In this document: in pieces, positions 45,481-63,996 of the stretch
Layout of the letters: each line of letters begins with the position of its first letter
Position numbering within the stretch: position 1 is the stretch's first letter
NCBI GenBank assembly: GCA_934796775.1
Contig: CAKVPH010000008.1
Coordinates: 19,136-83,135, forward strand
From: an uncultured Clostridia bacterium
GTDB lineage: Bacteria > Bacillota > Clostridia > Christensenellales > Borkfalkiaceae
Direction of reading: 5' to 3'
Length of the DNA stretch: 64,000 nucleotides
Notes under the pieces: model-generated
Told to the model about the DNA's origin: nothing
The model's input: the letters and a program-made list of their open reading frames with translations, nothing else
Database searches by the model: none
Program-made: the position numbers and the translations under genes

Positions 45481-46980
45481 ATGCTTAAATCACTTGAAAT
45501 TTATAACGAAACCAACAAAAAACTTAAAGCGTTAGGCTATGCCGGATACCTTATCGGCTGGGATATTCAAACCGAAGCTCCTAAACGCGCAAACCACTTT
45601 AAAGAAACCGAAACGCTATCCGAAATGCAATACAAACTGTCCACTTCGCCTGAGTATAAATGTGCGATAATCGACTTATACGCTCACTTATCCGAACTTG
45701 ACGAAGTTTTGGCTCATGAAATTACGCTTGCAAAAGAAGGCATAGAAAAACTTGAAAAAATTCCTATGGAGGAATATATCAGGTTTCAAAGCTTAACAAA
45801 CGAGTTTTATAACGTTTACGTAGACGCAAAACAAAACAACGATTTTAAATCGGCTTTGCCGTATTACGAAAAAATAGTTGACTATCGCAGAAGATACGTC
45901 AAGTGGCTCGAAACACCCGATAAAAAAGGCTACGACGTATTGCTTGACGAGTTTGAGCGCGATTTAACCATGAAAGACTGCGATGAATTTTTTACTCTCT
46001 TAAAAGAAAAGCTTGTTCCGCTTATTAAAGAAATTTCTCATAAAAAACCGCTTTTTGACGATTCTTTCAATAAAAAGATCTATCCTGCGGCAGGGCAGAA
46101 AGAGTTTCAGGAATACATAAGAAAAGTAATGGGCTTTAATCCCGATTACACTGTTGTAAAAGAGAGTGAACATCCGTTTACCACGAATAATACGGTTACG
46201 GACGTCAGAATCACAAATCATTTTTACGAAAATAATTTTACGAGTTCTATTTTTAGCGCAATTCACGAAATGGGACACGGGCTTTACGAGCTTCAATGCG
46301 ATCCTGAGTTAGACGAAACTATGAGCGCGGGCGGCGTAAGCATGGCAATGCACGAAAGTCAGTCGCGCCTTATGGAAAATATGATCGGGCGGAGCCGTGC
46401 CTTTTGGGAAACGCATTTTAAAAAGCTTTGCGAAATCTTTCCCGAAAATCTTAAAAACGTTACCGTAAACGATATGTTTTTGCTTTGCAACAGAGTAGAA
46501 TGCAGTTTAATAAGGACCGAAGCAGACGAACTTACCTATTCGTTGCATATTATGATCAGGTACGAAATAGAAAAAGCTCTTATTTCAGGCGAAATTGAAG
46601 CAAAAGATATTCCCGCAACCTGGAATAAACTGTACAAAAAGTATCTCGGCATAGACGTGCCGAATGACGGCAAGGGTTGTTTGCAGGACGTTCACTGGTG
46701 TTACGGTGAGTTCGGATATTTCCCGACCTACGCACTCGGCAGCGCATATGCGGCGCAGATTTACGACGCTATGGCAAAAGATCTGGATATAAATGAGGAA
46801 ATCAAATCGGGAACAGTAGCAGGACTTGAAAACTGGCTTAAAGAACATATTCATAAATACGGTTCGTCTAAGTTCAGTAAGGATATTCTCTTTATTGCGA
46901 CAAAAGAGAATTTTAATCCCGCTCATTATGTAAATTATCTTGTAAACAAGTATTCCGAAATTTACGGAATAAAAAAGTGA
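45481..46980 (+). CDS. M32 family carboxypeptidase (Taq-like)
   Basis: HPF, HEMGHG (HExxH), HESQS, IRTEADE and GCLQDVHW motifs; GGAGG RBS before ATG 45481. Confidence 0.85.
   Translation: MLKSLEIYNETNKKLKALGYAGYLIGWDIQTEAPKRANHFKETETLSEMQYKLSTSPEYKCAIIDLYAHLSELDEVLAHEITLAKEGIEKLEKIPMEEYIRFQSLTNEFYNVYVDAKQNNDFKSALPYYEKIVDYRRRYVKWLETPDKKGYDVLLDEFERDLTMKDCDEFFTLLKEKLVPLIKEISHKKPLFDDSFNKKIYPAAGQKEFQEYIRKVMGFNPDYTVVKESEHPFTTNNTVTDVRITNHFYENNFTSSIFSAIHEMGHGLYELQCDPELDETMSAGGVSMAMHESQSRLMENMIGRSRAFWETHFKKLCEIFPENLKNVTVNDMFLLCNRVECSLIRTEADELTYSLHIMIRYEIEKALISGEIEAKDIPATWNKLYKKYLGIDVPNDGKGCLQDVHWCYGEFGYFPTYALGSAYAAQIYDAMAKDLDINEEIKSGTVAGLENWLKEHIHKYGSSKFSKDILFIATKENFNPAHYVNYLVNKYSEIYGIKK
45664..45692 (+). 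repeat. dispersed motif, intragenic copy i
   Basis: GCGATAATCGACTTATACGCTCACTTATC; first 17 nt identical to copy d. Confidence 0.7.
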
Positions 46981-47014
46981 ATATGCCGATAACGAGCTTA
47001 TAGCGGCACTTTTA
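46979..47014 (+). repeat. dispersed 30-35 nt motif, copy e
   Basis: GAATATGCCGATAACGAGCTTATAGCGGCACTTTTAC, overlapping the stop codon of the M32 gene. Confidence 0.85.
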
Positions 47015-47137
47015 CTAAAAAATTGAACGATTTTGTCGTTTTTGTTCGTATTTTGTTTTTTCGGTAAAAGATATTTTTTATTGTTGCAAAATTACGGCAA
47101 AAGTTATATAATTTAAATAAAAAAACGGAGGCTTGAT

Positions 47138-47632
47138 ATGGCAAAGAAAAATTCAACGACCAAGTACAGAGTAAAGCCTAATAAAGACGTGGTTTCAAAA
47201 ATCATATCCGCAGCGGCTTTAATAGTTGTCGGCATACTGATGTGCATTTTTAAACAGCAGGTAATACAGTGGCTCATACTTATTTTGGGCGTAATGCTCA
47301 TAGTTAAAGGCGTGCTTGATTTTATGTCCGGCTTGACGGTTACCGGCGGAGTTGAAATAGTTTTGGGTATTTTAACGCTCGTATTCGGGTTTGCGTTTGT
47401 CCAGATTGCTGTAATCGTTTTAGGTGTAATCCTTGCACTCTACGGTGTATCCGGGCTTATGTACGGCGGTTATAAAAACTTATTCACGCTTGTTTATTGC
47501 ATAGTTTTAATCGTCGGCGGAGTAATGCTTGCATGCAACTCGTCGGCTGCTATCGACGGAATATTTATTGCCGTAGGCGTAATTCTTATCGTCGAAGGCG
47601 TTTTGTCTTTATTCGGTAAAAGAATTAAATAA
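47138..47632 (+). CDS. DUF308/HdeD-like small membrane protein
   Basis: 164 aa, five to six TM helices with repeated GV..I..G motifs. Confidence 0.5.
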   Translation: MAKKNSTTKYRVKPNKDVVSKIISAAALIVVGILMCIFKQQVIQWLILILGVMLIVKGVLDFMSGLTVTGGVEIVLGILTLVFGFAFVQIAVIVLGVILALYGVSGLMYGGYKNLFTLVYCIVLIVGGVMLACNSSAAIDGIFIAVGVILIVEGVLSLFGKRIK

Positions 47633-47651
47633 TCGGCGTTATAAAAGACGT

Positions 47652-47685
47652 AAAAAAGTCCGCTTGTAAAAGGCGGATTTTTTTA
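47652..47685 (+). terminator. rho-independent terminator
   Basis: TCCGCTT/AAGGCGGA stem with T7. Confidence 0.75.
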
Positions 47686-47765
47686 TGCCCGAAATGAACT
47701 TTTTTATATGTTTGCTTTAAAACTAAATTATAATTTACAAAAAGTTAAAACGTCTTAAAAATCGC

Positions 47766-47794
47766 TTTACATTTATATTATTATTATATATAAT
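47766..47794 (+). promoter_or_regulatory. sigma-A promoter of gyrBA
   Basis: TTTACA, 17 nt, TATAAT within a (TA)n-rich tract. Confidence 0.55.
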
Positions 47795-47887
47795 ATATAT
47801 ATTACTTCGCGCGCGACGATAATTAAAAAACGGCAAAAAAGCTTTATCGTTGTAAAACTTAGTAACAAACACGCTATGGCGCAATAA

Positions 47888-49867
<1,980 letters not shown>

Positions 49868-49896
49868 GGCATTTTGCGAAAGGAGGAATCAGAGAA

Positions 49897-52692
49897 ATGG
49901 CAAAAAAAGAATTTAACGCCGAGCTGACGGCGGAATTTCGCAAAACGCTCGATATGACTAACATAATCAACGTTGAAGTAGACAGAGAACTTAAAAAATC
50001 GTTTATAGCGTACGCTATGGCGGTAAACGTTTCCCGTGCTATTCCCGACGTAAGAGACGGTTTAAAACCCGTTCACAGAAGAATACTTTACTCGATGAGC
50101 GAAATGGGCTTAACGCCCGATAAGGCATACAAAAAATGTGCTGCAATCGTCGGTGACGTTCTCGGTAAATATCACCCACACGGCGACAGTTCGGTTTACG
50201 ACGCGCTCGTAAGAATGGCGCAGGACTTTTCAATTAACCTGCCGCTTGTAGACGGACACGGAAACTTCGGTTCGGTTGACGGCGATCCACCCGCGGCATA
50301 CCGTTATACCGAAGCGAGAATGAGCAAACTCGCTCTCGAAATGCTTCGCGATATCGACAAAGAAACGGTTGATTTTTATCCCAACTTCGACGATACGAGA
50401 ATGCAGCCTACCGTGCTTCCCGCAAGATACCCCAACATTCTGGTAAACGGATCCGACGGTATAGCCGTAGGTATGGCTACAAACATTCCGCCTCACAACT
50501 TAAACGAAGTAATAAACGGAACGATTGCTTTAATCGAAAATCCCGAAATAACCATAGAAGAGCTTATGACTCATATTCCCGCACCGGATTTTCCGACGGG
50601 CGCGATTCTTATGGGCAGGGCGGGCATTAAAAACGCCTTTATGACGGGCAGAGGCAATTACATTCTCCGCAGTAAATGCGAAATAGAGGACTTTGCTAAC
50701 GGTACGCGCCACAGAATAGTTGTAACCGAGCTTCCGTATCAGGTAAACAAACAAAAACTTATAGAATACATTGCAGACCTTGTAAAACAAAAGAGAATCG
50801 ACGGCATTGCCGATATCAACGACGAATCCGACAGACAGGGTATGCGTATAGTTATAGACGTAAAGAAGGATGCAAATCCGCAGGTTGTATTAAACACGCT
50901 GTATAAGCACACCGATCTCCAGAAGAGCGACGGCATAATAATGCTTGCGCTTTTAGACGGCGAGCCTAAGATCATGAACCTTAAACAGGTGCTTGAAGCT
51001 TACGTTAAACATCAGGTTGACGTTGTAACAAGAAGCACCAAATACGACCTTGCAAAAACCGAAGAACGCGAACATATAGTTAAAGGACTTGTTATTGCGC
51101 TTGCTTCTATCGACGAAGTTATCGCAATAATCAAAAAATCGCGCGACCGTCAGGACGCTCAGGCAAACCTTATTTCGGCTTTTGAACTTGACGAAAAACA
51201 AGCCAACGCAATACTCGATATGCGTTTGCAAAGACTTACTTCTTTAGAAGTAGAAAAGCTCAAACAGGAACTCGAAGAACTGGACAAAATAATGGCTGAC
51301 CTTCGTGATATACTGCAAAAACCCGAAAGAGTGCTTGCAATCATCAAAAACGACCTTATCGCAATGCGTGATAAATATCCCACGCCCAGAAAGACCGAAC
51401 TTTCTTACGACGAAAGCGAAATCGATCTTGCCGACCTTGTTAAAAAGGAAGACGTCGTTATCAGTATCACGCACTTCGGCTACGTCAAACGTCTTTCGCT
51501 CGAAGAATACAGATCTCAACGCCGCGGCGGCAGGGGCGTAACCGCTCATAAACCTAAGGAAGAAGATTTCGTTGAAGACATGTTCGTTTCTTCCACGCAC
51601 GACAGGCTGCTGTTCTTTACCAACTTCGGTAAGGTTTACAGGCTGATGGGTTACGAAATACCCGAAGCTATGAAAGCCGCAAGGGGTAGAGCGATAGTCA
51701 ATCTGTTGCAGTTAGAACCGGGTGAACATCCTTCTGCGATTATCCCGCTTAACGCTGTAGTCGGAGATGATAACGAGATCACAGTAGGCGAAAACGTAAC
51801 CGAAATCGAGCTTACCGATTTAAACGAAAACGGCGAAACTCCTGCTGAAAATACAAACGAAACTGTATCGGTTGAAAACGCTGAAAGTGCCGATAACGGT
51901 GCTATAGAGGGGGATTTAGGTGTAAAAGATAATGCTTATATCGTTATGGCGACCAAGCGCGGACTTATTAAAAAGACTGCCGTTTCCGAATTTAACAATA
52001 TCAGAAAGACCGGTAAGATTGCAATAAGACTTAACGAAGGCGACGAACTTATTTCCGTTCAGGTTGCTTCCGGCGACGATGAAATAATAGTTGCTTCTAA
52101 CGCAGGTAAATGTATAAGATTCTCCGAACACGACGTTCGTCCTATGGGCAGAGATACGCAGGGCGTAAGAGCTATGCTTATAGACGATGACGACGCCGTC
52201 GTGGATATGACGGTTATAAAAGAAGGTTACGACATTTTAACTATCAGCCGTCACGGCTTCGGTAAACGTTCTGACGTTGAAGATTACCGTCTGCAATCGC
52301 GTGGCGGTAAGGGTATAAAAGCCGGCGTGTTTAACGAAAAGACCGGTAACCTTGCATGTTTGAAACTTGTTAAAGACGACGAAGATCTTATGATTATTGC
52401 CGATAACGGTATAATTATAAGAACGGCTGCGGCAGGCATTTCAAAGATCGGAAGAGATACAAAGGGCGTTACCATAATGAAGCTTGGCGACGCAATAGTT
52501 AAATCGGTGGCGGTAGTCCCGCACAGCGAAGAACAGCCGGACGACGAAACGGAAGAATCGGCTGAAAGCGTTGTAAGCGAAGCTAATGAAAACGCAAATG
52601 TCGAAAATCAGGACGCTCAGAGCACGGATACTCAAGCTGTAGAAGGCGAAACACAAAATACAGCCGACGATAATTCCGATGATAACATCTAA
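49897..52692 (+). CDS. gyrA: DNA gyrase subunit A (with an acidic insertion and an acidic C-terminal tail)
   Basis: [31 protein letters not shown], active-site region [10 protein letters not shown], beta-pinwheel C-terminal domain. Confidence 0.95.
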
Positions 52693-52714
52693 GAATAATT
52701 TGTTTTAAAAAAAT

Positions 52715-52760
52715 AAAACAAGGTGCGGGGCAATTTTGTTCCGCACCGAATTTATTTAAA
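52715..52760 (+). terminator. probable terminator of gyrA
   Basis: GGTGCGG/CCGCACC stem; weak T tail. Confidence 0.5.
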
Positions 52761-52821
52761 TAGCTTAACAAATGAATTTATTTTAAAAACTCAATTTTAA
52801 TTAGAATAAAAAACTAAATTT

Positions 52822-53598
52822 ATGTATGAATTTTTAACGTTAGCCATTCCGTTTGCCGGCACAACGCTCGGCGCGATGATGGTATTCTTTATGAAAGATA
52901 AAGTAAGCCCTAAAATAGAAAAAGTACTTTTAGGGTTTGCTTCCGGCGTTATGATTGCGGCTTCGGTATGGTCGCTTTTAATACCGTCAATAAACCTTGC
53001 GGGGCTAAGCGGCGGAGTTGCCTGGGTGCCTGCGGCGGTTGGCTTTTTGCTCGGCATAGGCTTTTTGCTTTTAATAGACGTTCTCGTGCCGCACCTGCAT
53101 CTTCACGACGATAAACCTGAAGGCGTAAAAAGCGAACTTAAAAAAACGACTATGATGTTGCTTGCCGTAACAATACATAACATTCCCGAAGGAATGGCTG
53201 TAGGCGTAACGCTTGCCGGCGCACTTGCGGGCAATGCGGGAATAACGCTGTCGGGCGCGATTGCTTTATCAATAGGTATCGCTATTCAAAATTTCCCCGA
53301 AGGCGCAATAGTTTCCATGCCGCTTAAAGGCGAGGGCATGAAAAAAGGCAAAGCCTTTTTAATGGGAGTGCTTTCGGGTATAGTAGAACCTATCGGCGGA
53401 CTTTTAACTTTGCTTTTAATAAATGTTGTTCAACCGCTTTTGCCGTACTTTTTATCCTTTGCGGCGGGAGCTATGATTTACGTCGTGGTAGAAGAACTTA
53501 TCCCCGAAGCGCAAAGCGGAGAGCATAGCAACATATCCACAATAGGCGTAGCTTTAGGTTTTGTGCTTATGATGGTGTTAGACGTAGCACTCGGATAA
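52822..53598 (+). CDS. ZIP family metal (zinc) transporter
   Basis: HNIPEGMAVG and QNFPEG motifs; eight TM helices. Confidence 0.8.
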   Translation: MYEFLTLAIPFAGTTLGAMMVFFMKDKVSPKIEKVLLGFASGVMIAASVWSLLIPSINLAGLSGGVAWVPAAVGFLLGIGFLLLIDVLVPHLHLHDDKPEGVKSELKKTTMMLLAVTIHNIPEGMAVGVTLAGALAGNAGITLSGAIALSIGIAIQNFPEGAIVSMPLKGEGMKKGKAFLMGVLSGIVEPIGGLLTLLLINVVQPLLPYFLSFAAGAMIYVVVEELIPEAQSGEHSNISTIGVALGFVLMMVLDVALG

Positions 53599-53655
53599 CA
53601 TAACCTAAGGTTGTAGGCTGAAAAAGACTTTTTATAAGCTTTTCTTTTGCTTATT

Positions 53656-53732
53656 CTGCATATAAATATCTGCATATAAAAATCAAATAATAAGGGTTAT
53701 CTGCATATTTTTTAGCAATTTATATGCAGATA
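53656..53732. repeat. cluster of four TATCTGCATAT(A/T) motifs (3 direct, 1 inverted)
   Basis: CTGCATAT at 53656, 53670 and 53701; inverted ATATGCAG at 53722; copies 3 and 4 form a 12-bp inverted repeat. Confidence 0.85.
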
Positions 53733-53750
53733 TATTTACTGATAACCGCA

Positions 53751-53790
53751 AACAACGCCGCAGGCAGATAAAAAAGCCCGCGGCGTTGTT
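53751..53790 (+). other. 11-bp stem hairpin (possible terminator or processing structure)
   Basis: AACAACGCCGC ... GCGGCGTTGTT with an 18-nt loop; weak T tail. Confidence 0.5.
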
Positions 53791-53814
53791 AGTTTATTCT
53801 GCTTAACCTATGCT

Positions 53815-53844: not shown

Positions 53845-53882
53845 TCCTTTGAGAAAAACGGCGTTTTGCCGCGGAGGTTTTT

Positions 53883-54441: not shown

Positions 54442-55854
54442 ATGAGAGTGATTCAAAAAGTAGAACAGCGTTTCGGCGCGGCGGAAGGAACCATGCTCGG
54501 AATGATCTGCGTCGTTATAGTAAAGGCAATAGGTGCGCTTTATAAAATTCCGCTGTGCAACCTGCTCGGCGGCTACGCCGTAGGACTTTATCAGATGATT
54601 TTCCCCGTGTTCTCGATTATGTTGGTGCTTTCAGGTTCGGGTGTTCCGCTTGCTTTAACAAAACTTATTTCAAGCGGATACGACGGAAAAGAAACCTTAA
54701 AAAAGAGTCTGCTTGTTTTTTCGGCTTGCGGACTTTTTTTTACGTTGGTTTTGTTCTTTTTCGGCAAAAATATTGCGCAGTTGCAGGGGAATATTCAAGC
54801 GAAAAAATTATATAAAGCAATATCGCCGTCGGTATTTTTAGTGTCGCAAATTGCGTGTTTCAGGGGGTATTTTCAGGGCAAAAGCAACTTAAAACCCACT
54901 GCGTTTTCGCAAGTTATCGAGCAGGTCGTAAAGTGCGTTATCGGTACTATAGCCGCATATTTCTTACCGGTCGGTAATGTAGAAAAGGCTTTTTATGCAT
55001 GCATTGCGGTAACTGTGTCCGAAATTTTCGCGCTCATGTATTTTATAGTGCTTTACATTAAAAAACTTAAAAATGAGAACGCAAAAAAATCGGATTTACA
55101 AACTAATTTAAAAAAAGACGAGCAAGATGCATTCGAACAGGGAACAATTCCCACATACAAGGATATTTTTGTGTACGTTCTGCCGCTTACGTTAACCGCG
55201 CTAAGCCTTCCGATCGCCGCTATATGCGATAGTTTTATAGCCATAAACGTCTTAAAAAAGAGCTTTGGAGAAAGAGCTACCGAATTATACGGATTGTACG
55301 GCGGCGCGGTGGAAACTATAATCGGCTTGCCGTCCGCCGCTTTAATGTGTTTTGCAACCGGAGTTTTGCCCAAAATGAACAAGGAAAAAAACGGCGACTT
55401 AATCGCATTAAAAGTGACGTTTGTTTTATCTGCGCTTTGCGCCGTATTCGTAGCAATTTTTCCGTCTTTTATAGTTAAATTATTGTTTGGCGGGCTTAAA
55501 AACAAAGAGCTTTTAATAAAAATGCTTCGCGTTTCGGCAATAAATATAGTTATGCTGTGTTTATTGCAGACCTCGTCTGCCGTAATGCTTTCCAAAGGCA
55601 AACAAAAAGTGTCGTGTATATTTACGACGGTTGGCGCGGGTTTTAAAATTTTACTCGACTTTTTACTCATTCCATTGCCCGAAATCAATATTTTCGGACT
55701 GATTATTTCGGATTTTGGCTGTTATTTTCTTGCGTTAAGTCTGAATATATTATATATTTATAAGGTAAACACCGTAAAAAGGAAGCAAAGCTATGAGAAT
55801 AACGCTGATAGGTTTGGGCGTAGGCTCGGACGGAGTATCGATAAAAGCACTTGA
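54442..55854 (+). CDS. MOP-superfamily polysaccharide-biosynthesis/flippase-like protein (YabM/SpoVB-like)
   Basis: 470 aa, about 14 TM helices, immediately after spoVT as in Bacillus. Confidence 0.7.
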   Translation: MRVIQKVEQRFGAAEGTMLGMICVVIVKAIGALYKIPLCNLLGGYAVGLYQMIFPVFSIMLVLSGSGVPLALTKLISSGYDGKETLKKSLLVFSACGLFFTLVLFFFGKNIAQLQGNIQAKKLYKAISPSVFLVSQIACFRGYFQGKSNLKPTAFSQVIEQVVKCVIGTIAAYFLPVGNVEKAFYACIAVTVSEIFALMYFIVLYIKKLKNENAKKSDLQTNLKKDEQDAFEQGTIPTYKDIFVYVLPLTLTALSLPIAAICDSFIAINVLKKSFGERATELYGLYGGAVETIIGLPSAALMCFATGVLPKMNKEKNGDLIALKVTFVLSALCAVFVAIFPSFIVKLLFGGLKNKELLIKMLRVSAINIVMLCLLQTSSAVMLSKGKQKVSCIFTTVGAGFKILLDFLLIPLPEINIFGLIISDFGCYFLALSLNILYIYKVNTVKRKQSYENNADRFGRRLGRSIDKST

Positions 55855-57199
55855 CGTATTGCGCGCAAGTAGCTGTATAATTTGCAAAACTGCGCTTACT
55901 CAAAGTGCGAATATCTTTGAAAAATACTCGATAAACGTGACGTATCTTGACGATATGTTCTCAAAATCCCGCAATTTTGATACGTTAAACCATAAACTTG
56001 CCGCATACGTTATACAAAAAAGCAAGATCGAACCGGTTGTGTATTGCGTTGACGGTAGCGTTACCGACGATAATTCCTGTGCCGAAATTTTAAAAAAATG
56101 CAAGGACGTGCAAGTTATAGACGGCGTTTCGCATAGCCTTTCGGTATTATCTAAGCTGACCGGCAGGGGCGGTTACACCGCGCTTTCGGCGTATAATGCG
56201 GACGATTTTTCGCTGAGCGTTGTAAGACCGTTCGTGTTATACGATATAGATAATCAGTTTGTTGCCGCCGACTGGAAGTTAAGGCTTACCGACGCATTCG
56301 GCGATACCGCGCCCGCGGTTTTGTATATAGACGGCAAAGCAGAAAATATTCCGCTTTATATGCTCGATACGTTTGAAAAATACGATTACACTACTGTTTT
56401 AGTGGTTTTTAAACAGGATTTTTTACATAAAGAGCGTTTTTGCGTTGACGATTTATTTAAAATTATCTATGCGCTCAGGGCTGAAAACGGCTGTCCGTGG
56501 GATAAAGTTCAAACGCGCGACAGTATAAGCAAAAACCTTTTGGAAGAGTGTTACGAGCTTTACGACGCCATAAAACGCGACGACAGCACCGATATGATCG
56601 AAGAAAGCGGGGACGTTTTATTACAGCTCGTGTTTCAAACGGTGTTCGGCGAAGAAAAGCACGAATATTTAAGAAGCGACGTGGTTTCCGGCATATGTTC
56701 CAAGCTGATTTTCAGGCACAGCCACGTTTTCGGTACGGATAAAGCCAAAAACGGCGACGAAGCTTTAGACGTTTGGGAAAAGAATAAAAGCATAGAAAAA
56801 GGCTATTCGAGCGGCTCGGAATATCTGTCGCTCGTGCCGAGCAGTTTTCCCGCGCTCATGCGCGCGCAAAAGTTGCAAAAGCGCGCCGCAAAATACAACT
56901 TCGATTTTTCTCAGATAGACCAAATTTACGGCAAGATAAACGAAGAATGTGACGAAATAAAAAACGCCGCGTCATGCGGCGGCGATATAGCCGAAGAAAT
57001 AGGCGACCTATTATTTACGGCAGTAAACCTTGCAAGGTTTTACCACGTTGATGCAGAAGAAGCCTTGTATAAGTCCAACGAAAAATTTTTCAAGCGTTTT
57101 TGCGCCCTTGAAAGTGCAGTAAAAAAAGACGGTAAAGACTTGAAAAATATGACCGAAGAAGAGATAGATAAATACTACAATGAACTTAAAAAGTCTTGA
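55793..57199 (+). CDS. YabN-like fusion: tetrapyrrole-methylase-like domain plus MazG NTP pyrophosphohydrolase
   Basis: N-terminal MRITLIGLGVG; C-terminal MazG motifs (CPWDKVQT, EE.YE, GDVLLQ); overlaps the upstream gene by 62 nt. Confidence 0.75.
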   Translation: MRITLIGLGVGSDGVSIKALDVLRASSCIICKTALTQSANIFEKYSINVTYLDDMFSKSRNFDTLNHKLAAYVIQKSKIEPVVYCVDGSVTDDNSCAEILKKCKDVQVIDGVSHSLSVLSKLTGRGGYTALSAYNADDFSLSVVRPFVLYDIDNQFVAADWKLRLTDAFGDTAPAVLYIDGKAENIPLYMLDTFEKYDYTTVLVVFKQDFLHKERFCVDDLFKIIYALRAENGCPWDKVQTRDSISKNLLEECYELYDAIKRDDSTDMIEESGDVLLQLVFQTVFGEEKHEYLRSDVVSGICSKLIFRHSHVFGTDKAKNGDEALDVWEKNKSIEKGYSSGSEYLSLVPSSFPALMRAQKLQKRAAKYNFDFSQIDQIYGKINEECDEIKNAASCGGDIAEEIGDLLFTAVNLARFYHVDAEEALYKSNEKFFKRFCALESAVKKDGKDLKNMTEEEIDKYYNELKKS

Positions 57200-58133
57200 T
57201 ATAGGTCGATTAACGCTACGTAACAACATTTTAGTATCGCCTATGGCAGGCTATACCGATTACGCTTTTCGCGCCCTTTGCTACAAACTCGGCGCAGGGG
57301 CTTGCGTAACCGAAATGGTTTCGGCAAAGGGGCTTATTTACAAAAACGAGAATACCGAATTTTTACTGCGGCGCGACAAGGAAGAAAAAGTTTCCATTGC
57401 TCAGATTTTCGGTTGTGATCCCGATATTATGTGCATGGCATGCGAAAGCGAAGCGTTAAAGCCGTTTGACATAATCGATATAAATATGGGCTGTCCGGTA
57501 AATAAAATTTACTCAAACGGTGAAGGCAGCCGCCTTATGGAAAAGCCCGATTTAGCTGAAAAAATTGTTAAATCGTGCTGCAATTCCGGTAAAACAATTA
57601 CTGTAAAGTTTCGCGCCGGAATACGCGATAACGAACTTATAGCGGCAGATTTCGGTAAAAGAATGGAACAAGCGGGCGCAAAACTTATAACCGTTCACGG
57701 CAGAACTAAAGAAGGAATGTACAGTGGAAAAGTCCACTATGACGAAATAGCAAAGCTTAAAAAATCCGTGCAAATTCCGGTTATTGCAAACGGCGGAATT
57801 TTTACCGCGAGTGATGCCGACAAAATGATAGAACTAACGGGAGCCGACGGGGTAGGGCTTGCCCGCGGCGTGATATTCGATCCTTTGCTTATATCCCGAA
57901 TTACAGGCATGCAAACTGATATGACCGTAAAAGATTGTGCGTTTTATTTAATGGATAAAAGGCGTGAATTTATGCACGACAAGTTAGTCGCTCACGCAAT
58001 GCGAAAGACTTTGGCGGGGCTTTTAAAAGGCGTACGAGGCGGCAAAAATGCAAAATTAAAGATATTTGCAGCCGAAAGTACCGACGAACTAAAACAAATT
58101 TTAAACGAAGTATTTGAGGAAAATATAATATAA
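57180..58133 (+). CDS. dus: tRNA-dihydrouridine synthase
   Basis: SPMAGYTD, DINMGCP, VHGRT and ANGGI motifs. Confidence 0.85.
   Translation: MNLKSLDIGRLTLRNNILVSPMAGYTDYAFRALCYKLGAGACVTEMVSAKGLIYKNENTEFLLRRDKEEKVSIAQIFGCDPDIMCMACESEALKPFDIIDINMGCPVNKIYSNGEGSRLMEKPDLAEKIVKSCCNSGKTITVKFRAGIRDNELIAADFGKRMEQAGAKLITVHGRTKEGMYSGKVHYDEIAKLKKSVQIPVIANGGIFTASDADKMIELTGADGVGLARGVIFDPLLISRITGMQTDMTVKDCAFYLMDKRREFMHDKLVAHAMRKTLAGLLKGVRGGKNAKLKIFAAESTDELKQILNEVFEENII
57191..57220 (-). repeat. dispersed motif, intragenic copy h (dus codons 4-13)
   Basis: AAAAAGTCTTGATATAGGTCGATTAACGCT is 27/30 identical to copy a on the plus strand. Confidence 0.75.
57627..57647 (+). repeat. dispersed motif, intragenic copy f (dus)
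   Basis: GATAACGAACTTATAGCGGCA is 21/21 identical to 6855-6875. Confidence 0.8.
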
Positions 58134-58136
58134 AAA

Positions 58137-58170
58137 TAAAAAAAATCGGCTTAGATAACCGATTTTTTTG
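58137..58170 (+). terminator. rho-independent terminator of dus
   Basis: AAAATCGG/CCGATTTT stem with T7. Confidence 0.75.
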
Positions 58171-58252
58171 TGCCTTTTTTAGGGCGTTTATAATTTATAA
58201 GTTGCGTCTTTTATTTTTTTTAAATGCAACGCGCTAAGGTTTTATAAAAAAA

Positions 58253-58792
58253 TCACAAAGATTCGCCTAGTTCATAGGCAAGGCGAACCGCGTCGGTGTG
58301 AGTTTTTGCTACTCCGCCTCCGCTCATATCCCCGCCGGTGGCAATTCCGTACAGTGCCGATTTTTCAAAACAATCAACAAACCCTCTTAGTCCGTTGTAA
58401 GCTTTATCAAATACATATGCGCCTTCGTCTGCGGCCGTGGCTATCATATAAACTTTTCTGAATTTGTAATCGCGACTGTAAAGCGGGTTAAGCCTGTCTA
58501 TAAACGTTTTCATTTGTCCGCTCATTTCGTAGTAATAAACGGGCGTTGCAAAAATAAGCACGTCGGCGTTTTTTACTTTTTCCAAAATCTCGCAAACGTC
58601 GTCTTTAATAACGCATATTCCGCTTTTCTGGCAGGCAAGGCACCCTAGGCAAAAGGATATTTTTTTGCCTTTCAGCGTAACAAATTCAACTTCGTTTCCC
58701 GCGCTTTTTGCTCCTTTTTCGCATTCTCTCGCAAGATATTCCGAATTGCTGTTTTCCCTTAAACTTGTAGAAATAATTAAAATTTTGCTCAT
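58253..58792 (-). CDS. flavodoxin-fold NAD(P)H-dependent FMN reductase / iron-sulfur flavoprotein-like protein
   Basis: ILIISTSLRENSNS, Cys cluster CLGCLACQKSGIC, ATPVYYYEMSGQMK; start trimmed to ATG 58792. Confidence 0.7.
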   Translation of the reverse strand: MSKILIISTSLRENSNSEYLARECEKGAKSAGNEVEFVTLKGKKISFCLGCLACQKSGICVIKDDVCEILEKVKNADVLIFATPVYYYEMSGQMKTFIDRLNPLYSRDYKFRKVYMIATAADEGAYVFDKAYNGLRGFVDCFEKSALYGIATGGDMSGGGVAKTHTDAVRLAYELGESL

Positions 58793-58856
58793 AGTAATTC
58801 CTGCTTTTTGCCTGAAATAATTGTAAAATCTTGCAAGCAAGTTTGCAACTTTTTTT

Positions 58857-59066
58857 TTACAAATTATCGCGACCTAACAACTCGTCGGTCGTAACGTCAA
58901 AAAAATCAGCAATCAAACACAGCGTTTGCACGTCGGGTTCGCTTCTGCCCATCTCGAGATATGAAACTCTGCGCTGAGTCGTGCCTAACTCCTTTGCCAA
59001 TTCTTTTTGCGTTAAATTTTTTTGTAAACGTAATTCCTTTAAATTTTTTGCAAAAATTTGTATCAT
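58857..59066 (-). CDS. XRE-family helix-turn-helix transcriptional regulator (69 aa)
   Basis: LTQKELAKELGTTQRRVSYLEMG HTH; no SD; a TATAAT lies 7 nt upstream of the ATG, suggesting a leaderless mRNA. Confidence 0.8.
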   Translation of the reverse strand: MIQIFAKNLKELRLQKNLTQKELAKELGTTQRRVSYLEMGRSEPDVQTLCLIADFFDVTTDELLGRDNL

Positions 59067-59076
59067 ATAAAAATTA

Positions 59077-59092
59077 TAGACAAAAAGTGTCT
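59077..59092. promoter_or_regulatory. operator 1: TAGACAAAAAGTGTCT (AGACA-N5-TGTCT palindrome)
   Basis: Abuts the minus-strand -10 (59073-59078) of the XRE gene. Confidence 0.65.
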
Positions 59093-59099
59093 TAATAAT

Positions 59100-59128
59100 T
59101 TGACTTAGACAAAAAGTGTCTGTATAAT
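59100..59128 (+). promoter_or_regulatory. divergent plus-strand sigma-A promoter with operator 2 (59106-59121) filling its spacer
   Basis: TTGACT, 17 nt (TAGACAAAAAGTGTCTG), TATAAT; operator 2 is identical to operator 1. Confidence 0.65.
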
Positions 59129-59389
59129 ATAAAAGTAAAAATATAGAAAAAACAAAAATACCATTGCAGCCGATAAAAAGTATAAACGGTTATTCATGCA
59201 AAAATATTGAGTAGATGACGAATGTTTTACCTATATATATTTGCAAATTAAATTACAATAGTGTATAATAAAAACAGGTATCTATGTAAAAAATAATTAA
59301 AGGATACCGCTTAAAAACTATTTAATTTTTTGTAAATCCGCTTTAAGGCGGATAAAGTGCAATCACTTAGCGGTTTGTTGAAAGGAATG

Positions 59390-60445
59390 ACTATGGAAAA
59401 AGAGCTTACACTGATTCTTCGCACGCTTAAGCAAAAAACGGGCATATCCGTTGACGTATATACCACGGGTTACGAGTATTTATTCTCGGCGGGCGAAAAA
59501 ACGCCGTTTGTTTTTATGGGCGATTATACCGACGGTTTGCAGGATAAAAGGCAGAACGCCACCGTATTTCGTTTTCGCTTTAAGCGCGAAAATTATATAG
59601 GGGTTATAGGCGGCAGTACCGAAGTTGAACGAAATTACGCTCTTTTCATTTGCAATTATCTTGAAAACAGCGGAATACAAGATGACAATCTGCCTCGTAC
59701 CGATTTTTTGCGCGCAATAGTTTTTGGCGAATGCAGCAGTATGCAGATAGTCAAATTCATGCGTAAATTTTCCGTTCCTGCGGTTCCTTGTTATATTTTA
59801 TCAATTACCGTAGAATCGGGCAGGGATATAGACGAAACAATAGACTTTTTGGATAACTACTCCATAAACGGGCTTGATACCGCAATAAGCATAAACGAAA
59901 ATATGTGCGTTTTCGTAAAGTTCATAACCAGCGAGAACGAATCGGAATATCAGTCGCCCGTAGACTTTGCCGAAATTTTTGCCCGTTCATTGTTTGAAGA
60001 AACGGGCGTAAAAGTTAAAGTGGGCGTTGGCGGAACGGTAAGGAGTTTATCAGAAGCCGTACAGTCTTATAATCAGGCAGAAAGCGCGTTAAAGCTCGGT
60101 ATGTCGTTCGGGCTAAAAAGCTCGGTTCATTCTTATAAGGAATTTATACTTTACAAAATGCTTGAAGAGTTACCGCCGCTAAAGCTTGCCGCGTTTTATA
60201 ATACGCTGTCCGACGGAGAGGCAAAAAGCATTTTTACCGATCCCGAAATGATATCAACTGCGGAAGAATTTCTCGAAAACAACTTAAACGTAAGCGAAAC
60301 CGCCCGCAAACTATATATGCATCGGAATACTTTAACCTATAGGCTGGATAAAATCGAGCGAGCCACAGGACTTAACATAAGGAATTTTTCCGACGCCGTA
60401 ACTTTCAGGTTAAGCAATCTTTTATATAAGATCTTAAATAAATAA
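59390..60445 (+). CDS. PucR/CdaR-family transcriptional regulator
   Basis: C-terminal HTH ETARKLYMHRNTLTYRLDKIERATG; start uncertain (GTG 59357, ATG 59390 or ATG 59396). Confidence 0.7.
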   Translation, partial: TMEKELTLILRTLKQKTGISVDVYTTGYEYLFSAGEKTPFVFMGDYTDGLQDKRQNATVFRFRFKRENYIGVIGGSTEVERNYALFICNYLENSGIQDDNLPRTDFLRAIVFGECSSMQIVKFMRKFSVPAVPCYILSITVESGRDIDETIDFLDNYSINGLDTAISINENMCVFVKFITSENESEYQSPVDFAEIFARSLFEETGVKVKVGVGGTVRSLSEAVQSYNQAESALKLGMSFGLKSSVHSYKEFILYKMLEELPPLKLAAFYNTLSDGEAKSIFTDPEMISTAEEFLENNLNVSETARKLYMHRNTLTYRLDKIERATGLNIRNFSDAVTFRLSNLLYKILNK

Positions 60446-60472
60446 AAAATTAAAAAAAAAGGACGTTTTCTT

Positions 60473-61924
60473 ATGGAAAACAATCAGAACAAAAAACTTC
60501 AGGACGAAGTAATCGAAAACACTCAGCCAAAAGGCGTTTCGGCAAAGACCGAAACGGATGAAGACGCGTCTTTAATAGTCACTAAAGACAAAAAGACCAT
60601 AGTAAAACGGACAACCGTCCTTATTGCAAAAATCGTTGCGGTATTTGTAGCTATAGTAATTTCGTTTATGCTCGGCTTCGGTGCTAAATATGCCGTCAGC
60701 GACGACGATTATCTGTCGCTTAGCTTTATTTTTGATGCGTATAAACGGCTTTATTACGACGCAAAAGACACAAGTCTTCCCGATGCGCTTGTAGAAGCAC
60801 TTATGGATCGTTATTCCGATTATTATACCGCCGAAGAATATCAGACGAGAATAAACGAAAGCAAAGGCTCGCGCGAGGGATTCGGCATTTCGCTCAGCGG
60901 ACTTAAGATTTATAAAATAACGGGTAATTCTCCTGCCGAAAAAAGCGGGTTGCAGCCCGGCGGCGTTATTACGGAATACAAAAAGATCGGAGACGATAGT
61001 TTTATCGCAGCCGAAACAAACGAAAAGATCACCGAATTTTTAAGTTCGGTAAAGGCAAACGACGGTGTTGTTATGCGCGTTAAATACGACGAAGAAATTC
61101 ATGAATATACGGTTAGAAAGCAAGCTTACAGAGAAACTTACGTTTATTACGAAGACTTAAGCGGTCGCTATCGTTTTTCCGACGATAACCCCAAAAATAT
61201 AATTATGATTACAAAGTACGGCGAATCGAGTTTATCGCTCGGCGAGGACTGGGGCTATATAAAATATACCTCTTTTTACGGTGTAAACAACGGCATCAGC
61301 GGCAGCAGTAAACAATTTACCACCGCGATCGATATGTTTTTTGAAAACGGCAGAAAAAATCTTATAATAGATTTAAGGGATAACGGCGGCGGATATCTGT
61401 CTATCCTTCAAAAACTGAGCGGAGTATTGTGCCGCGAATTGCCGGGAAATATTAAAGACCGGTATAGCGGAAACGGCTGCCAGAAAGCAATACACCGTAA
61501 CGGCGAAGATATTTACGGCATCGATATGACGGACGCTGCCGACGATAAAAAAGTAAGATATGCCGAACGCATTGAAAAAATAGTGTTTTTAGCAAACTCT
61601 GGTTCGGCTTCCGCATCCGAAGCTTTAATGGGTTCGGTACTCGATTACGATAAATTCTCGGGCGCAAATTGCACCCGCGTAATACTCGACGCCACTTACG
61701 AAAACGGCAAGGAAGTATTCAGAAGTTACGGTAAGGGCATAATGCAGTCCACAATAACCAACGCGCGCACGGGCGAAGCGTTAAAGCTTACAACTGCAAA
61801 ACTTTACTGGCCGCTTTCGGGTATCAGTATTCACGGCGTAGGTTTAACTCCCGAGCTGGACGAAAGAATTTTTGCTTCCGACGGCGATCCTATTAAAATG
61901 GCGCAAACAAAGGTTTTTAACTAA
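60473..61924 (+). CDS. S41 family C-terminal processing peptidase, membrane anchored
   Basis: N-terminal TM helix, PDZ (ITGNSPAEKSGLQPGGVI), DLRDNGGGY, SGSASASE. Confidence 0.8.
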   Translation: MENNQNKKLQDEVIENTQPKGVSAKTETDEDASLIVTKDKKTIVKRTTVLIAKIVAVFVAIVISFMLGFGAKYAVSDDDYLSLSFIFDAYKRLYYDAKDTSLPDALVEALMDRYSDYYTAEEYQTRINESKGSREGFGISLSGLKIYKITGNSPAEKSGLQPGGVITEYKKIGDDSFIAAETNEKITEFLSSVKANDGVVMRVKYDEEIHEYTVRKQAYRETYVYYEDLSGRYRFSDDNPKNIIMITKYGESSLSLGEDWGYIKYTSFYGVNNGISGSSKQFTTAIDMFFENGRKNLIIDLRDNGGGYLSILQKLSGVLCRELPGNIKDRYSGNGCQKAIHRNGEDIYGIDMTDAADDKKVRYAERIEKIVFLANSGSASASEALMGSVLDYDKFSGANCTRVILDATYENGKEVFRSYGKGIMQSTITNARTGEALKLTTAKLYWPLSGISIHGVGLTPELDERIFASDGDPIKMAQTKVFN

Positions 61925-61943
61925 ATAATAATAGTAAAAACAG

Positions 61944-61985
61944 TAAAAAATACCGGCAAGGATTAAGTTCCTTGCCGTTTTTTTT
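61944..61985. terminator. bidirectional terminator
   Basis: CGGCAAGGA/TCCTTGCCG stem flanked by A7 and T8. Confidence 0.85.
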
Positions 61986-63996
61986 ACTCTTCCCACCATT
62001 CTTTATTTTTAAAATCGTCTTTTTCGCAAACCAGAATTTCAGGCAGAACGTATTTTTCTCCGTAAAGTTTTTCGCCGCCCGATATCTGAACGTAAGGCGT
62101 TACGGTGTACGAGTAAACACCGTCTTTTAAGTTTTTATCAAAAAACTCCGCTTTATCGCATTCAAAAGTAGTTGTTTTCCCGTTTTTATCCGTCCTTAAA
62201 ATTTCATAGCCTACAAAATCGTTTTTTTCTACGGTTATTTTTGCGCCGTCGTTTACTTTTTCTATTTTAACGTCTTTTATTTTTGGCGAAAGGTAGTAGT
62301 CGGAAATTTTTGACGGAACGTTCGATGCTAAAAAACTACTTTCAAAAGTATATCTTTCGGGTTGACCGTCGGGGGCGAGCAAAAGCTTTAAATCGTCGTA
62401 TGCAAACTTGCACAGTCTTACTCTTTTAACCTGAGCCGATTTCTTAAAATCTTTGGGCGGATTATCTTTATAGTATTCGTCCATTACGTCGCCTAAAAAC
62501 GAAGCCGCCCGCGCACCCGTAAAATCGTTGGGTAAAAGGCTTGAGCTTTCCGCACTTATTCTAAGAGATATCACGTCTTGAGAAGTATAACAAACGGAGT
62601 AAACGTCGGTGTTTCCCTTTGCCGTTCCGTTTGTTCCGGTTTTTGCCGCAACCTGAAATTTTTTACCCGAAAGTGCTTTTGCCGTTCCCGTTTCCGCACA
62701 TTTTTTTAACATATCGGTAATGAGTTCTGCCGTGCCTTCGCTAAAAACCTGCACGGGATTTATCTTGTCCGACTGTATCGATAATCGACCTATAGCGGCA
62801 CTTTTTATAAAATGAGCGGGGTAAAACGTGCCGCCTGAACAAAAAACGGTGTACGCTGCGGAAAGGGCAGAAAGCGTGCAGCCGTCGTCAAATACGCCCA
62901 AGGCAATCGACAGTCCGTTTTCATTTATGGGAATTTGCAACTTATCGGTAAATTGTTTTGCTTTATTTGGCGTTACGCTTTCAAGTATTTTTACCGCGGG
63001 AACGTTAAGACTTTTTGAAAGGCAATCTTCCGCCGCCGTCCAACCGTAGTATTTATCGCCGTAATTTTTGGGCGAGTATCCAGAAAAATCCGTTTTTTCG
63101 TCGTTGATTTTTGTTGCGGGCGAGATTATTTTAAGCTCTGTTGCCGGCGCATATACGAGCAGGGGTTTTATAGCGGAGGCAGGCATTCTTTTTTTGTCGC
63201 CGCTGTCAAAATATACGGCTTTTACGCCGCCTGTTTTTGAAATGATATACGCGCTTTTATCGTAACTTTCGCATTCCGAAATACCGTTTAAGGCGGCTTG
63301 CGCATTTTTATCGAAATACGTGTAAACGTGAATCGTATTTTTTTCGTAAGGGCTTATTTTAAAACGGGAAAAAAGTTCGTTTTCGGCGTATGAAAAGTAA
63401 GAAATGTTTTCGGGCGTATTAAGTTCCGCGCTCTTTTTGCTTTCAGATGAATATTCCTGCTCTGATATGAGATTTTGTTTTAACATAAGCGATAAAACAA
63501 GGTTTTTTCTTGAAAAATTATTGCTTGAAGCGGGCGAATAGTTCGCGGGCGATTTTACGGTTGCCGCCAAAGCTGCCGCTTCGCTTAGCGTAAGATCTTT
63601 CGCACTCTTTGAAAAGTAGGTTTTTGCCGCGTTTTCTATTCCGTATGCGCCGTTGCCGAAGTATATGGAATTTAAATAAAACTCAAGAATCCGGTCTTTA
63701 GTGTATTTTTTTTCTAATGCTAAGGCAAGTTTAATTTCGCAAAGCTTTCGTTTTATGGTTTTTTCGGAAGATAAATGAGTATTTTTTATAAGTTGCTGGC
63801 TTATAGTAGAGCCGCCTTCCGCCGCTTTGCCCTTTAAAATATTGCTTTTTGCGGCACGCAAAAGCGCGTAAAAATCAACTCCTCCGTGCGAATAAAAACG
63901 CTTATCTTCAACTGCTATAAAGGCGTTTTTAACATAAACGGGCAGTTCGTTTAGAGCTATAAAAGATTTTGTGTTGCCGCTTTTTGCAAAAAGCAC
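61984..63996 (-). CDS. class A penicillin-binding protein (transglycosylase/transpeptidase); N-terminus lies beyond the window
   Basis: GT51 motifs EDKRFYSHGGVD and GGSTISQQL; transpeptidase SAIKP, SLN, KTGT. Confidence 0.85.
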   Translation of the reverse strand: MLFAKSGNTKSFIALNELPVYVKNAFIAVEDKRFYSHGGVDFYALLRAAKSNILKGKAAEGGSTISQQLIKNTHLSSEKTIKRKLCEIKLALALEKKYTKDRILEFYLNSIYFGNGAYGIENAAKTYFSKSAKDLTLSEAAALAATVKSPANYSPASSNNFSRKNLVLSLMLKQNLISEQEYSSESKKSAELNTPENISYFSYAENELFSRFKISPYEKNTIHVYTYFDKNAQAALNGISECESYDKSAYIISKTGGVKAVYFDSGDKKRMPASAIKPLLVYAPATELKIISPATKINDEKTDFSGYSPKNYGDKYYGWTAAEDCLSKSLNVPAVKILESVTPNKAKQFTDKLQIPINENGLSIALGVFDDGCTLSALSAAYTVFCSGGTFYPAHFIKSAAIGRLSIQSDKINPVQVFSEGTAELITDMLKKCAETGTAKALSGKKFQVAAKTGTNGTAKGNTDVYSVCYTSQDVISLRISAESSSLLPNDFTGARAASFLGDVMDEYYKDNPPKDFKKSAQVKRVRLCKFAYDDLKLLLAPDGQPERYTFESSFLASNVPSKISDYYLSPKIKDVKIEKVNDGAKITVEKNDFVGYEILRTDKNGKTTTFECDKAEFFDKNLKDGVYSYTVTPYVQISGGEKLYGEKYVLPEILVCEKDDFKNKEWWEE
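62779..62808 (+). repeat. dispersed motif, intragenic copy g (antisense to the PBP gene)
   Basis: CGATAATCGACCTATAGCGGCACTTTTTAT; 25/27 identical to copy a over the core. Confidence 0.8.

Follow-up and report, generated by a model that had tools for sequence, protein, structure and literature searches.

Enterobacterial genomes carry dispersed protein-docking repeats, among them the repetitive extragenic palindromic (REP) sequences and the bacterial interspersed mosaic elements (BIMEs), of which BIME-2 provides gyrase sites and RIB/RIP or BIME-1 sites for integration host factor (IHF). As a group these sequences are bound by gyrase, IHF or Pol I and go together with a RAYT transposase. The gyrase motif of E. 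coli is symmetric and 130 bp long, with a central region from -16 to +19 and flanks from -63 to -17 and from +20 to +66 that have a periodicity of 10.75 bp (PMC6379681). Gyrase enrichment was found both in regions downstream of transcription units and at BIME-2 elements, the latter being referred to as transcription-independent strong gyrase sites (PMC6379681), and the cleavage specificity of bacterial type II topoisomerases varies by species (PMC12324340). A second group of comparable sequences comprises the uptake signal sequences (USS) as well as the DNA uptake sequences (DUS). Within the Haemophilus USS, phased A/T tracts aid uptake, on one side only and over approximately two helical turns (PMC7811141), while 34.5% of the uptake sequences of N. 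meningitidis are located in open reading frames (ORFs), the range across known uptake sequences being 34.5–65% (PMC2817400). Here we describe a dispersed motif with the core GATAAYCGACYTATAGC that recurs in a 64,000-nucleotide stretch (hereafter the window) of contig CAKVPH010000008.1 from an uncultured Clostridia bacterium of the Christensenellales. Like REP/BIME sequences and Mu's strong gyrase site (SGS), it is present in dispersed copies, probably hundreds of them, past transcription units and in either orientation, and on these comparisons it appears best described as a dispersed protein-docking repeat akin to the enterobacterial ones. Unusual features are that it is conserved at the level of an order, that it reaches into coding sequence and that it bears an explicit signature of wrapping.

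A dispersed word of one clade

A profile hidden Markov model (HMM; nhmmer) trained on 111 copies, all from other genomes, identified nine significant copies of the motif in the window (Table 1). Four of the nine lie in coding sequences (CDSs), one in an M32 peptidase gene, two in dus and one in the gene for a penicillin-binding protein (PBP). A first-pass annotation of the window had named these same four coding copies, and its assignments agree with the Pfam domains of the window genes (Peptidase_M32, Dus, and Transgly plus Transpeptidase, in addition to TfoX_N in a gene discussed below). The chance expectation for the 17-mer with up to two mismatches is 0.01 per window. A repeat finder grouped copies starting at 6845, 42461, 46978, 57617 and 62770 in the forward orientation and at 5142, 43970 and 57169 in the opposite one, and the aligned window copies have in common GATAAYSRRCYTATAGC, followed by approximately five variable bases and then by a T run. 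The 26-mer at 6855–6880 recurs with up to three mismatches at 46988 and 57627 (3 matches in the window, 0 in shuffles). The internal dus copy was accepted despite its E value because it is identical to 6855–6875 over 21 of 21 nucleotides and because orthologues have the motif at the same site. Three fainter resemblances are at noise level: a repeat-finder match at 9206–9241 (5 mismatches to the core) and two weaker matches that the first-pass annotation had added to the list, at 2466–2486 (6 mismatches; HMM E value about 10) and at 30955–30990 (4 mismatches, a level at which chance alone gives 1.6 matches, and absent from the HMM output).

A recurrent subtype, GATAACGRRCYTATAGC, with a one-base shift of its CG step, is found beside the main GATAATCGAC form in several genomes. 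In the window it occupies the sites at 6855, 46988 and 57627, and elsewhere it was seen in L024, L039, L070, L096, L119 and L127 (comparison loci are cited by their L numbers).

A scan of 185,579 species genomes for GATAAYCGACYTATAGC returned at least 113 loci, about 100 of which belong to some 35 gut or rumen metagenome-assembled genomes (MAGs) labelled Christensenellaceae, Christensenella, Clostridia or Clostridiales. Among the matches listed, up to 14 loci came from one MAG and a handful were evident chance matches in unrelated taxa. The window itself belongs to a contig from a human gut metagenome (Hadza). The proteins encoded in the window are approximately 30–70% identical to those of the motif-bearing genomes, and a megablast (blastn) comparison of the window with the 113 motif loci listed gave no nucleotide similarity. 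The motif recurs every 5–10 kb; a set of 228 kb that had not been picked for the exact core gave 30 copies, i.e., one per 7.6 kb, and 73 further non-exact copies are present in 746 kb of selected loci. Among the viral contigs of IMG/VR there were only three exact cores, all chance-like and none with the characteristic flanks, and a phage-borne or mobile origin was rejected on this ground.

Several motif-rich MAGs bear implausible labels, namely 'uncultured Acidiphilium sp.', 'Parasutterella excrementihominis' and 'Subdoligranulum sp.', with Clostridia-type genes inside (L008, L074, L087, L099 and L127 of assembly CAZHGN; L015; L092). The PBP orthologue of L127 is 47% identical to that of the window, and the labels or the binning look wrong. 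A literature search covering the motif sequence, competence or uptake in Christensenella and uptake signals in Firmicutes retrieved no description of the motif, and a by-eye comparison gave no convincing likeness to promoters, Xer/dif, cre, LexA, Spo0A-box or DnaA-box sequences.

Coding copies conserved as DNA

The coding copies are conserved in DNA and not in peptide, as the first-pass annotation had proposed. When the 54 CDSs of the window were shuffled synonymously (100 times), matches of at least 7 bits numbered 4 in the real sequence and 0.34 in the shuffled ones; at 9.5 bits or more the values were 3 and 0.08, and at 20 bits or more 2 and 0, so that the coding frequency in the window is above the expectation from codon usage.

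The comparison of orthologues points the same way. In the gene frame, the copy at the start of dus reads TTA AAA AGT CTT GAT ATA GGT CGA TTA ACG (LKSLDIGRLT), and its first 13 nucleotides (57187–57199) are also within the end of the mazG-like gene. Four species whose Dus proteins share 67–70% amino acid identity (the window, L117, L118 and L120) have TTA AAA AGT (C/G)TT GA(T/A) ATA GGT CGA TTA ACG codon for codon, against a pairwise codon identity of 0.45 at invariant residues in the rest of the gene. L119 lacks the motif there and uses other codons, yet has the same mazG overlap. The second dus copy, GAT AAC GAA CTT ATA GCG GCA GAT TT (DNELIAAD), has its counterpart in L119 (E value 1.5e-6) and L120 and none in L117 and L118; in L119 the residues at this site are APLF, which gives a better T tract. 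In the PBP gene, where the window reads AAA AGT GCC GCT ATA GGT CGA TTA TCG ATA (KSAAIGRLSI), six species at 47–64% amino acid identity have kept ATA AAA AGY .. ATA GGT CGA TTA (T/A)CG, the departures, in L125 and L128, being single synonymous or one-codon changes; the background codon identity at invariant residues is 0.52. Since codons are identical within the motif while the others are largely randomised, the conservation must lie in the DNA. In addition, the coding copies still have C/CC beside the core, together with the TTTT and with the phased tracts described below.

That these positions reflect ordinary coding conservation together with chance resemblance is hardly credible. The peptides IGRL(T/S) and DN-LIA do look native and are conserved in close relatives, as such an account would require. 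However, codon-shuffled CDSs almost never give matches, the synonymous sites are frozen within the motif only, the core would be expected by chance at the low rate given above, and the same word is abundant in the intergenic DNA of dozens of genomes. Moreover, where an orthologue is without the motif at a site, its nucleotides differ. The excess over codon usage and these differing nucleotides are the opposite of the two outcomes that the first-pass annotation had named as refuting.

The encoded residues are native, again in agreement with the first-pass annotation. The alignment of Dus proteins has no indel at either motif site; the M32 copy, tgt gcg ATA ATC GAC TTA TAC gct cac tta tcc, in whose frame TAC stands in place of the TAG of the motif, encodes CAIIDLYAHLS, which aligns without gaps to the M32 structure of B. 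subtilis (PDB: 3HQ2); and KSAAIGRLSI shows no insertion relative to PBP2 of S. aureus. An in-frame insertion was thus ruled out, as no residues are added in Dus, M32 or PBP with respect to orthologues or PDB homologues. The motif resembles the Rickettsia palindromic elements in being a repeated DNA word inside conserved protein-coding genes, but those elements are insertions that add residues. The use of different frames and both strands, another point of the first-pass annotation, was confirmed: copies occupy whichever frames are free of stop codons. The motif contains stop codons in two of the three forward frames and in one of the three reverse frames, which predicts a sense to antisense ratio of 1:2 in CDSs and accounts for the 13:31 observed.

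Three further features were seen at these genes. The first 20 nucleotides of dus (57180–57199) are shared with the end of the mazG-like gene upstream, this arrangement recurs in all orthologue loci, and the antisense copy straddles the overlap. A second, partial motif, AAAACGGACTTATAGCCTC..., is conserved at one position of the PBP gene in L125 (10914–10932), L126 (10923–10942), L127 (10923–10941) and L128 (10911–10928) and is absent from the PBP gene of the window. Directly after the PBP stop codon there is an intergenic copy in L125 (12218–12250), L128 (12192–12224) and L127 (12199–12227), inside a terminator-like hairpin in L125 and L128, while the window has no copy there.

Phased flanks and genomic placement

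The extended consensus of 121 exact-core copies is AAAA(-9 to -6) N3-4 C [GATAATCGACYTATAGC] C C N A Y TTTT(+22 to +25), i.e., a central block of approximately 35 bp from -9 to +25. The 17-bp core is nearly invariant and asymmetric: four of its eight mirrored positions are self-complementary, and the adjoining flanks are C/C, not C/G. Positions +17 to +21 vary among copies and genomes, being CCNAC in most genomes and GGCAC in the window. On both sides of the core the A/T content oscillates with a period of approximately 11 bp (estimates 10.7–11.5 bp), with peaks at about -64, -41, -28, -17.5 and -7.5 and, after the core, at +23.5, +33, +43.5, +56.5, +66.5 and +77. These peaks are in phase with the ATAAT and TATA blocks of the core and are present in intergenic and coding copies alike. 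The oscillation is mirror-symmetric around approximately +7.5, and its amplitude falls to background 60–70 bp from that centre, so that the phased span totals about 130 bp. The Fourier power of the flanks alone reached 0.038 in intergenic and 0.034 in coding copies. The maxima of 200 random-anchor controls were 0.016 and 0.019, two to three times lower. A general 11-bp periodicity of genomic A-tracts was ruled out as the source with control anchors of A3-N29-T3 spacing, which gave 0.009 +/- 0.003 (maximum 0.02), compared with 0.042 (left flank) and 0.039 (right flank) for the motif, about four times as much. The profile was also replicated in the 30 independent copies from the 228 kb not ascertained on the exact core (r 0.41; null 0.00 +/- 0.10). 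With phased A/T tracts on either side, some 130 bp around each copy are predicted to bend in a single direction, as duplex DNA does on the surface of a protein.

These flanks bear on a possible derivation of the copies from small mobile elements (remnants resembling miniature inverted-repeat transposable elements, Rickettsia palindromic elements or REP sequences) or from gene-conversion tracts, the latter an alternative named by the first-pass annotation. The window copies at 6855, 46988 and 57627 share 21–26 nucleotides, including the normally variable tail, and some copy-bearing spacers are missing in relatives, as at the junction of the SpoVT-like and flippase genes, where L120 has a spacer with a copy and the window, L118 and L119 have no spacer. 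Nevertheless, an inserted unit of 35 bp cannot carry the phased composition that non-homologous flanks share out to +/-60 bp; measured against orthologues or solved structures, the coding copies bring in no extra residues; target-site duplications, terminal inverted repeats and composite structures were not seen; the same sites persist in orthologues at 47–64% identity; and the motif is absent from viral contigs. We therefore regard a mobile or gene-conversion origin as improbable. In loci with two copies there is no consistent spacing or orientation and no composite transposon structure.

An element acting in RNA, such as an unusual terminator, a stabiliser of 3' untranslated regions or a protein-binding RNA motif with incidental coding copies, is still less probable. 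Intergenic copies do lie just past stop codons and end in a T run, and a minority is embedded in hairpins: 12–19% of intergenic copies have a flank duplex of -8 kcal/mol or below, compared with 6–11% for shuffled partners, an excess of 6–8 percentage points. The site is nonetheless probably recognised as double-stranded DNA and not as RNA, because copies occur equally in both orientations to transcription, their flanks do not pair, there is no covariation and no Rfam match, and separate canonical terminators stand alongside. Pairing between the 5' and 3' flanks of a single copy is no stronger than between flanks of different copies (-2.13 and -2.17 kcal/mol); no pairing register covaries or exceeds the expectation from column composition in the exact-core copies; and of the Rfam families only two tRNAs pass the gathering threshold in the window, an E-value scan of 42400–47100 giving nothing at the copies. 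To these can be added the conservation of antisense coding copies at synonymous sites and the phased flanks. A closing hairpin or riboswitch-like RNA was rejected, as fixed-register pairing and free-register duplex energies, compared with partner-shuffled flanks, gave nothing beyond the small minority. An intrinsic terminator was rejected as well, the T run being present without a consistent hairpin; in the window the two terminator hairpins adjoin the copies and are not inside them. Overlapping palindromes or copies built into terminators, of assorted designs, are few (L008, L065, L071, L103 and L117).

By crude gene calls, 19 copies are in tandem spacers in sense orientation, 28 in tandem spacers in antisense orientation, 14 between convergent and 2 between divergent genes, with 13 sense and 31 antisense copies in CDSs. 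When all HMM matches are considered, intergenic copies number 3 in divergent, 19 in convergent and 78 in tandem spacers, compared with length-based expectations of 16.3, 15.1 and 68.6, respectively (p 0.0014 overall). In 57 of the 78 tandem cases the upstream stop codon is the closer gene boundary, the medians being 31 nucleotides to the stop and 67 nucleotides to the next start. Copy density is approximately 16 times higher in intergenic than in coding DNA, although 53 of 178 HMM matches (about 30%) are in ORFs, where they are evenly distributed along the genes (Kolmogorov–Smirnov p 0.69) without 3' bias. There is no strand skew, either relative to local GC skew (74:94; p 0.12) or to the majority gene direction (54:72; p 0.13), and strand-polar signals such as Chi, the FtsK-orienting polar sequences (KOPS) and the SpoIIIE recognition sequences (SRS) were ruled out for this reason. 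The HMM found no significant copy in the 35-kb stretch from 6.9 to 42.4 kb of the window. Its genes, which encode ABC transporters, a solute-binding protein, several large proteins without Pfam domains and paralogous aldo-keto reductases, suggest accessory DNA.

The copies are listed in Table 1, together with other repeats of the window. The mechanically called ORF at 44286–45275 runs into the gene for tRNA-Ala, and the real alpha/beta-hydrolase gene must therefore start downstream of the tRNA.

Table 1. Motif copies, adjoining terminators and other repeats in the 64-kb window
Feature	Position	Strand	Setting	Evidence
Intergenic copy GCGATAATCGACCTATAGCAGGACTTTTT	5161–5191	-	Convergent: TfoX_N gene 4744–5058 (+) and class-II fructose-bisphosphate aldolase gene 5283–6275 (-)	nhmmer E 1e-8; inverted-repeat pairs I1 and I6; Pfam for neighbours
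Intergenic copy, subtype GATAACGAACTTATAGCGGCACTTTTT	6855–6881	+	27 nt past stop of TM1266-like gene (6514–6828), upstream of next + strand gene	nhmmer 6863–6881, E 5e-3; 26-mer reference copy
Terminator hairpin, canonical, bidirectional	42401–42442		20 nt ahead of copy 42462–42497	Terminator scan
Intergenic copy GCGATAATCAACTTATAGGCGGACTTTTTT	42462–42497	+	Convergent: galactokinase gene 41285–42397 (+) and ORF 42510–43052 (-)	nhmmer E 3e-4
Terminator hairpin	43899–43931		Adjoins copy 43989–44024	Terminator scan
Intergenic copy AAAAAAGTGGCGATAATCGACTTATAGCGCGACTTTT, best of the intergenic copies	43989–44024	-	Between terminator hairpin 43899–43931 and alpha/beta-hydrolase gene 44286–45230 (-)	nhmmer E 2e-11; Pfam for neighbour
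tRNA-Ala	45231–45306	-	Overlapped by mechanical ORF 44286–45275	
Coding copy, sense	45658–45692	+	M32 carboxypeptidase gene 45400–46980	nhmmer 45658–45680, E 3e-5
Copy GATAACGAGCTTATAGCGGCACTTTT	46980–47014	+	Starts at last base of M32 stop codon; DUF308 gene 47138–47632 downstream	nhmmer E 0.014; one mismatch to 26-mer
Coding copy, antisense	57187–57220	-	dus codons 3–14	nhmmer 57200–57212, E 0.049
Coding copy, sense	57627–57652	+	dus, internal	nhmmer 57635–57652, E 0.37
Coding copy, antisense, best of the coding copies	62775–62806	+	Class A PBP gene 61984–63996 (-)	nhmmer E 4e-9
Perfect 40-nt tandem duplication (AATAAATGCCGCCTAAATTCAAGTTTACAAAGGAAGAAAT, twice)	2995–3074		Over ribosome-binding region and start of ORF 3040–3663	
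Five to six T-rich tandem units of ~33 nt (TTTTTGTTTGCTYTGCGCC...AAGGCAA)	10701–10918		Upstream of ABC-transporter gene at 11252	
Terminator-like hairpins, 85% identical (AAAAAATACAYCGCACATTTTYGTGCGGTG...)	31260–31312 and 38372–38424		First directly after tRNA-Pro	

A proposed wrapping site or a possible uptake signal

Our tentative preference, held with somewhat less than even confidence, is that the motif is an architectural or topological site for a DNA-wrapping protein, with gyrase as the leading candidate and a function like that of REP/BIME sequences. What the data show are the anatomy, the distribution, the constraint on the DNA and the conservation across the clade; both the wrapping of the site and the identity of the protein involved we infer. 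Each site would consist of approximately 130 bp bent or wrapped around a two-fold-symmetric protein assembly, with the asymmetric central block of about 35 bp, AAAA-N4-C-GATAAYCGACYTATAGC-C-N2-A-Y-TTTT, flanked on each side by five to six A/T-rich patches in phase and some 11 bp apart. As the patches are in phase with the blocks of the core, their narrow minor grooves would all face the same way. The copies are found mainly just past genes, close to ordinary terminators and in convergent spacers, which are regions in which positive supercoils accumulate during transcription; in places that lack a spacer, codon choice together with mild changes of amino acids would embed the site in a coding sequence, and purifying selection would then keep it there. 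If the wrapper is DNA gyrase, the copies would be hard-wired strong gyrase sites and analogues of the REP/BIME-2 elements of E. coli. The core may be read by a clade-specific, sequence-reading partner or by a nucleoid protein, e.g., of the DNABII/IHF type.

Copies are positioned after genes and in convergent spacers, avoid divergent promoter regions, take either orientation and are maintained by selection even inside genes, all of which is consistent with a hard-wired site at which a wrapping enzyme or a nucleoid protein would bind. The absence of strand skew fits a symmetric binder. Both the motif and the E. coli gyrase motif have a central block of about 35 bp and periodic flanks to approximately +/-65 bp, with similar periods (10.7–11.5 and 10.75 bp; PMC6379681). 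With REP/BIME sequences the motif shares a location at the 3' ends of transcription units and a proposed role as hard-wired docking site for DNA-bending or DNA-wrapping proteins. It differs from them in being neither a palindrome nor a stem-loop, in not being strictly extragenic (53 of 178 HMM matches and four of the nine window copies are in CDSs), in a core that is kept across genomes at 45–70% protein identity and not in one species group, and in showing no signature of mobility, in a comparison that included no search for a RAYT-type transposase.

Several points weigh against this proposal. The 17-bp core, nearly invariant and asymmetric, contrasts with the known preference of gyrase, which is degenerate and two-fold symmetric around a 4-bp staggered cut; gyrase alone thus does not explain the core, and an extra sequence-reading factor may be needed. 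Gyrase is universal, whereas the motif is confined to one clade. Curvature in itself does not exclude uptake, since phased A/T tracts also aid uptake of the Haemophilus USS (PMC7811141). In addition, the gene calls behind the placement counts are crude (the longest ORFs of at least 100 amino acids), the period estimates are coarse (10.7–11.5 bp), and the 103 reference loci were chosen for containing the exact core.

With respect to a nucleoid protein as the reader of the core, the consensus of IHF sites is WATCAANNNNTTR with an upstream A-tract, and Firmicutes generally carry HU, not IHF. The sequence AATCGACYTATAG fits seven of the nine specified positions of the consensus, which we take as a lead and not as a test. 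The A-tract of the motif ends 8 nucleotides upstream, presumably as in the lambda H' site, and the central block has what we assume to be the size of an IHF footprint (about 35 bp), again as leads only. Such a footprint would not cover the T-tract at +22 to +25 or the outer phased tracts.

The alternative put forward by the first-pass annotation was a USS/DUS-like uptake sequence. On such a reading, a competence receptor would favour motif-bearing DNA, and biased uptake with recombination, i.e., molecular drive, would spread and maintain copies at sites where they are tolerated, in 3' spacers and permissive frames. The distribution and the DNA-level conservation on which that annotation relied have stood. 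The motif appears over-represented in, and confined to, one clade, with dialect-like subtypes (GATAATCGAC and GATAACGRRC), and occurs in both orientations without strand skew. Like USS/DUS, it has copies both in spacers after genes and, where tolerated, in coding sequence; its ORF share of about 30% is close to the 34.5% of N. meningitidis (PMC2817400), and the sense to antisense ratio in CDSs is near that predicted from stop codons. Coding copies have native residues, exceed the codon-shuffle expectation and keep their positions between species. A few overlapping palindromes may act as terminators, as USS pairs do (PMC7811141); copies are often near terminators, and helically phased A/T tracts are found in the USS as well. 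The 35-kb accessory-type block without a copy and the viral contigs without the motif would also be expected of an uptake signal, as these are rare in accessory DNA. A gene for a TfoX_N protein is present, as had been pointed out.

The echo of the Haemophilus USS core AAGTGCGGT that the first-pass annotation had perceived is, in contrast, coincidental, since it is confined to positions +17 to +21, which vary between copies and genomes. The TfoX_N protein is weak evidence of competence: it has 104 amino acids, consists of this domain only and scores barely above the Pfam threshold (32.6 bits; cutoff 30.1), and it was the only competence-type protein seen, without a survey for comEA, comEC, comG or dprA. 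The symmetric, phased footprint on both sides over about 130 bp far exceeds any known uptake signal and is not predicted by an uptake model; the depletion of divergent regions is explained only indirectly; the invariant core of 17 bp, compared with 9–12 bp in USS/DUS, is long for a pilin-type receptor; and the density of one copy per 5–10 kb is about ten-fold lower than that of USS/DUS (about one per kb). Sequence-specific uptake is so far known from Pasteurellaceae and Neisseriaceae alone, and not from Firmicutes, to which the host lineage belongs. On balance we consider an uptake sequence unlikely, and a slightly lower standing is given to its most specific form, namely a genuine uptake signal, the first outside Proteobacteria, in a Christensenellales-like, largely uncultured order of gut Firmicutes, whose core and bilateral tracts would kink DNA for import. 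Were it true, it would overturn the view of Gram-positive-type competence as sequence-blind. A nucleoid-protein binding site, mentioned by the first-pass annotation among its alternatives, is now the better-supported reading, as the symmetric phased tracts of about 130 bp and the divergent depletion are features of no known uptake sequence. The remainder of our confidence is assigned to some other DNA-level function.

If gyrase or another wrapping protein docks at these sites, a single conserved DNA word would hard-wire the topology or architecture of the chromosome, for which there are few precedents. The word is shared by an entire order of gut bacteria that are abundant and associated with health, and silent codons of essential genes such as dus and the class A PBP gene are frozen by it. 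The motif would then provide a sequence-based means of mapping and perturbing the management of supercoils in bacteria that are difficult to cultivate, a naturally occurring substrate of high affinity for studies of species-specific topoisomerases or of fluoroquinolone targeting, and a diagnostic marker for binning the contigs of this clade.

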